From assembly GCF_003334815.1 (NCBI RefSeq), contig NZ_QOWO01000081.1: a stretch of 3,658 nt of DNA. One strand, 5' to 3'. Each line of letters opens with the position of its first letter. Position 1 is the stretch's first letter. Positions 1,681-1,709 of the stretch are shown piece by piece. The notes under the pieces are model-generated. The model worked only from the letters and a program-made list of their open reading frames with translations, ran no database searches and was not told where the DNA came from. The position numbers and the translations under genes are program-made. This stretch comes from Escherichia coli (GTDB taxonomy: Bacteria; Pseudomonadota; Gammaproteobacteria; Enterobacterales; Enterobacteriaceae).

Positions 1681-1709
1681 TTGCCTGTTTCTGGTGTGCG
1701 TGATAGATT
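1681..1709 (+). promoter_or_regulatory. Candidate repA promoter (CopB-regulated) downstream of copB
   Basis: TTGCCT (1681-1686), 17-nt spacer, TAGATT (1704-1709). Its location between copB and the CopT hairpin is where the CopB-repressed promoter is expected in IncFII replicons. Motif match is moderate. Confidence 0.3.

Follow-up and report, generated by a model that had tools for sequence, protein, structure and literature searches.

A probable CopB-repressed repA promoter downstream of copB in an IncFII replicon

The DNA analyzed here, a single stretch of 3,658 nt that is referred to as the window, carries an IncFII (R1/R100-type) basic replicon comprising copB, the antisense RNA CopA, tap, and repA. 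This identification is based on the match of CopA to RF00042, on the copB, tap, and repA open reading frames (ORFs), and on the annotations of matching plasmids. A 751-nt copB-tap query retrieved more than 5000 plasmid records, chiefly from Escherichia, Klebsiella, Shigella, and Salmonella, with annotations such as 'replication regulatory protein RepA', 'RepA leader peptide Tap', and 'incFII family plasmid replication initiator RepA'. The genes and RNAs of the window that are relevant here are as follows:

830-985: sok antitoxin RNA (Rfam RF01794, 83.8 bits)
975-1124: Hok-like ORF of 49 amino acids (MTKYALIGLIAVCATVLCF...)
1408-1656, + strand: copB (repA2), ORF of 82 amino acids (PF10723 RepB-RCR_reg, E=1.5e-33; RHH_5, E=9e-5)
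1738-1755, + strand: leader hairpin GCCAC-N8-GUGGC, predicted by RNA folding, in the 5′ portion of the repA mRNA and ahead of CopT
1794-1885, − strand: copA antisense RNA (Rfam RF00042, 101.9 bits, full length); the + strand complement is the CopT target
1892-1920, − strand: copA promoter-like site TTGAAC-17-TATACT (promoter scan, 9/12)
1903-1977, + strand: tap, leader peptide ORF of 24 amino acids that overlaps the repA start; the homologous ORF is annotated as tap in R100 and other plasmids
1970-2827, + strand: repA, ORF of the IncFII initiator, with GTG 1970 as the likely start (in the ORF list the frame opens with GTG 1958)

The companion elements of an IncFII module, that is, CopA RNA, a tap ORF overlapping the repA frame, and an IncFII RepA, are all present. 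The copA promoter-like site ends 7 nt upstream of the CopA 5′ end at 1885, and the repA annotation of R100 starts at the position homologous to GTG 1970. Upstream of copB, positions 830-1124 hold a hok/sok-type toxin-antitoxin module; directly upstream of copB, a DUF2726 gene is found in R100 and a Hok/Gef gene in some other plasmids. A consensus DnaA box (TTATCCACA) is located at 3001-3009, ~175 nt downstream of repA, where the oriR of IncFII replicons is expected.

A preliminary description of the window had pointed to a moderate promoter match at 1681-1709, just past copB and before CopT, as the candidate for a CopB-controlled repA promoter. The sequence at these positions is TTGCCTGTTTCTGGTGTGCGTGATAGATT, and it can be divided into three parts:

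1681-1686, + strand: −35 hexamer TTGCCT, 4/6 to TTGACA, in the same columns as TTGAGT of R100
1687-1700, + strand: variable part of the spacer, 36% identical to R100 and 14% to the R1 type
1701-1709, + strand: extended −10 element TGaTAGATT, with TG at 1701-1702 and the hexamer TAGATT (4/6 to TATAAT) at 1704-1709

Both the match, TTGCCT-17-TAGATT, and its placement were confirmed: with the two hexamers at the optimal distance of 17 nt, the motif starts 24 nt past the stop codon of copB (1654-1656) on the repA strand and ends 85 nt before the CopA-complementary region (1794-1885). In addition, we found a TC directly 5′ of the −35 hexamer, which, like the TG of the extended −10 element, had gone unmentioned. 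The hexamers alone are weak, since they agree with the consensus at only 8 of 12 positions. A promoter scan of the window with a threshold of 9/12 did not list the site, and a separate scan at 8/12 gave 39 sites of this quality when both strands of the whole window were counted. The similarity of the hexamers by itself therefore does not set the site apart from chance matches. The stricter pattern TTG-N17-TGnTAnnnT matches only once in the window on either strand, namely at 1681-1709; 0.11 matches are expected by chance, and 22 of 200 shuffled sequences contained at least one. Between 1022 and 2083, no terminator-like sites were found on the + strand, and read-through from upstream of copB is therefore plausible.

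An alignment with known repA promoters had been proposed as a check on the motif. We take the reference motifs of R100 and R1 to be the experimentally mapped repA promoters of these plasmids. In the alignment with R100 (NC_002134), the motif occupies the same columns as TTGAGT-17-TAGATT, which speaks for the proposed assignment. The locus around PA (pII) of R100/NR1 resembles the window in that copB/repA2, a short intergenic region, the sequence TTGnnn-17-TGnTAGATT, CopT/CopA, tap, and repA follow each other in the same register. The differences concern CopB, which is another allele with 60% protein identity to that of the window, the −35 hexamer (TTGAGT in R100, TTGCCT in the window), and the element upstream of it, which reads ATGTAGCGACATCACAT in the window and TGATGATGGGCTTACAT in R100. 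The identity between the two replicons is 100% upstream of copB and 97% in codons 1-13, but drops to 56% in the rest of copB, 48% from the stop codon to the −35 hexamer, and 36% in the 14 variable spacer positions; it then rises to 89% in the TGn plus −10 hexamer and 98% in the leader. Hence, codon 14 of copB through the spacer form a divergent block (53-58% identity) that is embedded between flanks with 97-100% identity. The same mosaic was observed against the R1-type locus L020 and against a fourth allele, L025, and the right edge of the block is at the extended −10 element.

For R1, its CopB sequence served as the tblastn query. We presume that the resulting locus L020 (pEFC36a) is of the R1 type, since its CopB is 98.8% identical to this sequence. 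A further reason for this assignment is that its two UUACU motifs match the two Kid sites reported for R1 (PMC4344636). In the alignment with this locus, the extended −10 element (TGcTAGATT) lies in the same columns (TGCTAGATT) and is followed by the same leader, a dyad that closes copB lines up with positions 1662-1678 of the window, and published work describes the same regulatory logic for R1; the −35 hexamer is CTTTAC/TTTACT-like and not TTGnnn. The R1-type dyad is a perfect 19-bp palindrome, whereas that of the window is imperfect, and 10 fewer bp separate it from the −10 element, which is why the palindrome overlaps the −35 position. These features are located at 705-723 and 738-746 of L020, and the counterpart in the window is 1657-1720. 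The R1 type also differs in its two UUACU (Kid/PemK RNase) motifs, one of which extends across TAGATTACT, while the window has none between the copB stop codon and the leader. Kid RNase sites have been reported in the copB-repA intergenic region of R1 (PMC4344636), and as the window lacks UUACU here, the Kid-CopB coupling of R1 may not apply to its allele.

The conservation of the motif was analyzed in 35 loci. Seventeen loci were selected from one-genome-per-species contigs for a 24-nt leader pattern and represent about ten genera, including Enterobacter, Pantoea, Kosakonia, Salmonella, Erwinia, Klebsiella, Rahnella, and Yersinia. Another 11 plasmid loci were sampled by tblastn over the range of CopB protein identity; the promoter was not used in either selection. 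R100, the recombinant L019 (see below), and five loci found by DNA similarity to the window block complete the set. Of the loci chosen for their leader, the 16 that keep the region all have TGnTA(G/A)ATT at a distance of 20-24 nt before the leader hairpin, and so do all 11 of those sampled by their CopB protein. The strict pattern TTG-N17-TGnTAGATT occurred exactly once each in 27 of the 35 loci. The other eight are accounted for by three identical sequences with TAAATT, two loci with the R1-type layout, a 1-nt deletion in the −35 hexamer, a degenerate −35 hexamer (ATGCTG), and a deletion of the region. Among 27 distinct IncFII-like loci from about ten genera, no intergenic positions are better conserved than TTG and TGnTAGATT with their 17-nt spacing. 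The information content of 23 distinct sequences with the layout of the window peaks at T-AC-TTC-TTG and GTG-TAGATT, with essentially no constraint on the 14 nt in between. Conserved TTG and TGnTAGATT elements around a free spacer are what would be expected for a σ70 promoter and not for an RNA element. The 24-nt pattern over the leader hairpin is itself identical in the 17 loci from about ten genera.

Within the copB/operator class of the window, 1661-1690 and 1693-1709 are invariant among seven variants whose copB genes differ by up to ~6%; counted by eye, two of 49 columns vary in 1661-1709 compared to ~11% in copB, a variation too sparse for a test of constraint. A 266-nt block containing copB and the promoter matched 1241 plasmid records, 1234 of them over the whole block and 281 with at least 99% identity.

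CopB is a ribbon-helix-helix transcriptional repressor, as judged from its sequence and predicted structure. The ribbon-helix-helix (RHH) part comprises about residues 40-81. In an AlphaFold model built with 20 homologues (pLDDT 78), residues 41-49 are extended and two helices (50-63 and 67-81) follow. The structures that this model resembles most are CopG, Arc, MatP, and antitoxin RHH domains (~1 Å rmsd over ~40 residues), with E-values that are weak because the domain is small. The copB frame is intact and has a good Shine-Dalgarno sequence. A phmmer search against the PDB listed nothing but TAL-effector repeat proteins (E down to 3e-8); no single stretch of these passed, and the matches look like an artefact of repeats or composition rather than homology.

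The best candidate for the operator of this repressor is an imperfect dyad directly upstream of the promoter motif:

1662-1678: candidate CopB operator, 17-bp imperfect dyad ATGTAGCG-A-CATCACAT, 5/8 pairs, centered at A1670

It ends 2 nt before the −35 hexamer, and its center is 11 bp upstream of it. Searching the promoter region of the window for inverted repeats with 6-nt seeds reported none, including neither this dyad nor the second candidate described below, and when the best dyad was sought separately for every allele, no single center held for all of them. A common register appeared once the search was anchored on the palindrome of the R1 type, AAAGTAAAG-A-CTTTACTTT, which is perfect (9+1+9), spans both the copB stop codon and the −35 position, and lines up with window positions 1662-1678 in the multiple alignment. 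In the same register, centered 11 bp upstream of the −35 hexamer, other alleles have the dyads ATGTGAT-GGG-ATCACAT and ATGTAAAG-A-CTTCACAT. The symmetry amounts to 9/9 pairs in the R1 type, 7/8 in both the L025 and L003 types, and 5/8 in the window, and the general form is GTnA-N5-TnAC.

We also compared the divergence of the dyad with that of the RHH part of CopB. The two are correlated (Mantel r=0.60, p ~2e-4), although this correlation is confounded by tight linkage, as the dyad overlaps the end of the copB coding region in some alleles. For the spacer, a weaker correlation was obtained (r=0.35), and the leader showed none (r=0.14). For pairs with at least 60% identity in the CopB RHH part, the dyad element is 79% and the spacer 43% identical; the respective values for unrelated CopB pairs are 49% and 38%. 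The within-class identity of the spacer would be consistent with neutral drift. The dyad is centered at about −46 in most classes, including that of the window, and at about −36 in the R1 type, i.e., one helical turn apart. Outside the R1 type, this indicates a candidate operator that may sit one helical turn further upstream, which would be mildly new.

Riise and Molin reportedly mapped the CopB target of R1 in 1986 to a dyad overlapping the −35 hexamer, a position that would fit another operator in the window. Here, the promoter would again be real and repressed by CopB, but the protein would bind an inverted repeat centered on the −35 hexamer and occlude it. Such an imperfect repeat does exist (ACATCACA at 1670-1677, N12, and TCTGGTGT at 1690-1697; 6/8 pairs, center at 1683.5), it improves to 7/8 pairs in variants with a G at 1691 such as L019 and L031 (the latter being one of the 95.1%-identity records, which are mostly Klebsiella), and the divergence of the spacer does follow that of CopB, less strongly than the dyad. 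On the other hand, the spacer with the right arm of this repeat hardly exceeds background within a CopB class (43% versus 38%, compared to 79% for the upstream element), the within-class variant L035 (T1692C) breaks one of the pairs, and no comparable dyad centered on −35 recurs across the alleles. We therefore regard this arrangement as possible but clearly the less likely one, and the dyad at 1662-1678 as the most likely operator of the window allele.

The remaining alternatives question the promoter or its control. It is quite improbable that a functional promoter has escaped from CopB in the window allele, being constitutive or silent, so that the dual-promoter logic would not apply. The dyad of the window is indeed the least symmetric of those compared (5/8 versus 9/9 in the R1 type and 7/8 in the L025 and L003 types), and decayed or recombinant arrangements occur naturally, as illustrated by L019, L030, and L010. 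But the copB-plus-promoter block is intact in 1234 of the 1241 matching records, which argues against such an escape, as do the invariant positions 1661-1690 and 1693-1709 in the seven class variants and the intact copB with its good Shine-Dalgarno sequence. We consider it slightly less probable still that TTG...TGnTAGATT is kept for a role at the RNA level, such as processing, cleavage, or structure of the read-through mRNA, with repA being expressed from the copB promoter alone. The region is transcribed within a long copB-repA mRNA, and the UUACU (Kid) motifs of the R1 type fall into the same stretch, including the one across TAGATTACT (PMC4344636). However, the conserved positions are σ70 contacts (TTG, TG, and TAnnnT) at a fixed spacing of 17 nt around an unconstrained spacer, the window keeps the motif without any UUACU, and two repA promoters have been published for R1 (PMC5717011). 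Finally, the motif could be a chance resemblance without any promoter at 1681-1709, as an 8/12 match below the scan threshold with 39 equally good sites in 3.7 kb might suggest. The conservation of the same positions across genera and the positional identity with the promoter motif of R100 leave next to no room for this explanation.

Because position, gene context, orthology to R100, conservation, and the published knowledge of the family agree, we consider 1681-1709 to be very probably the σ70 promoter of a short tap-repA transcript, which would be repressed by CopB and orthologous to PrepA of R1 and PA/pII of R100/NR1. The identity originally suggested for the motif is thus supported by its position, its gene context, and its homology with IncFII replicons. 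The start site, the repression by the CopB of the window, and the exact operator are inferred. The element as such is already known; it is a new copy of a long-known promoter, real but ordinary. As transcription usually starts 5-8 nt downstream of the −10 hexamer, the following position is predicted:

1714-1717, + strand: predicted transcription start of the short tap-repA mRNA, from the distance to the −10 hexamer

No mapping of the repA transcription start was found in the accessible literature for any IncFII allele; the one plasmid transcriptome study among it declares that its design was not meant for locating starts. The first ~45 nt of the predicted transcript (GCTGATCGTTTAAGGAATTTTGTGGCTGGCCACGCCGTAAGGTGGCA, within 1710-1757) are strongly conserved across genera, and the leader hairpin at 1738-1755 has no complementarity to CopA.

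In R1, repA is expressed from two promoters, the constitutive PcopB and PrepA (PMC5717011; PMC4344636; PMC12779154), and the latter is repressed by about 90% by tetrameric CopB (PMC5717011). The dual-promoter logic that had been proposed for the window matches this literature (PMC5717011), and read-through is plausible here given the lack of + strand terminators between 1022 and 2083. Accepting orthology, copB would be transcribed from its own constitutive promoter, and this transcript would read through into repA. At normal copy number, CopB, which is reported to be a tetramer, would bind beside or over the −35 hexamer and shut the second promoter. With the dyad at 1662-1678 as the operator, the protein would extend over the −35 hexamer. 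When the copy number and with it CopB fall, the promoter would fire from ~1714-1717 into the leader, CopT, tap, and repA, and more RepA would be made. According to the literature on R1, the tetrameric form of CopB gives PrepA a steep dependence on the plasmid concentration (PMC5717011). The promoter would thereby act as the switch for the recovery of IncFII plasmids from low copy number and for their establishment in new hosts.

CopG and the promoter Pcr of pMV158 provide a more distant parallel: a small RHH repressor is co-transcribed with rep and shuts down a rep promoter by attaching to a pseudo-symmetric element there, and an antisense RNA acts alongside it (PMC5717011). The CopB model superposes on CopG at ~1.0 Å over 42 residues. 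Nevertheless, the replicon type and initiator of pMV158 are unrelated, and the sequence identity of CopB and CopG is only ~17%. Moreover, the operon of CopG has one promoter, which CopG itself regulates, while the target of CopB is not the copB promoter but a second, internal one.

In E. coli-type plasmids, flanks that are 97-100% identical enclose copB/operator alleles of at least four highly divergent types (those of the window, R100, R1, and L025), and several further classes were found in other genera. This distribution tentatively suggests that copB and its operator form an exchangeable specificity cassette, that the classes with an upstream dyad repress by a different geometry, and that the alleles are perhaps mutually orthogonal, a proposal that we put forward with considerable reservation. 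If it holds, the upstream dyad would call for another mode of repression, e.g., a dimer of dimers extending over the −35 hexamer or a block of upstream polymerase contacts, and orthogonal alleles would alter the mutual sensing of copy number between IncFII plasmids that share a cell. Apart from this, our analysis confirms an annotation for a clinically widespread replicon, with the copB/promoter allele of the window being present in more than 1000 sequenced E. coli and Klebsiella plasmids. It adds, modestly, a cross-genus map of the intergenic region, with constraint on TTG, on TGnTAGATT, and on an upstream dyad whose sequence varies with the class of CopB, and with a free spacer. The map leads to a concrete operator hypothesis; no footprint of the window copB allele was found in the accessible literature.

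A few individual loci deviate from this general organization. L019 (456-761 of the E. albertii plasmid pESA139_1, NZ_CP070293.1) is a natural recombinant and one of the few partial matches to the block. Here, an R100-type copB is joined to the dyad, −35 hexamer, and spacer of the window type at the junction ...CGATG/TAGCG..., i.e., CGATG/TAGCGACATC. The copB stop codon is lost, and therefore the annotated ORF (101 amino acids) runs through the promoter. The locus combines a mismatched pair of repressor and operator on a multi-replicon plasmid. L030 (~720-750; E. coli p104, NZ_CP093070.1) has an R100-type promoter whose −35 region lacks 1 nt (ACATTC-TGAGT compared to ACATTCTTGAGT); this plasmid also carries FIA and FIB replicons, and in L030 the promoter may have been weakened or the replicon may be decaying. 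L010, a contig of Intestinirhabdus alba that came from the leader-pattern selection, was left out as a decayed replicon with the promoter deleted and repA fragmented. At 3419-3700, a deletion joins copB (at ~codon 70) straight to the leader hairpin and removes operator and promoter, and the replicon is probably dead. Lastly, L013 (SFGN01000277.1, 'MAG: Lachnospiraceae bacterium') is a 2-kb contig with an enterobacterial IncFII copB, promoter, and leader and a further CopB allele with a HAVI-type ribbon; its occurrence in a Firmicutes MAG most likely reflects a mis-binned plasmid fragment.
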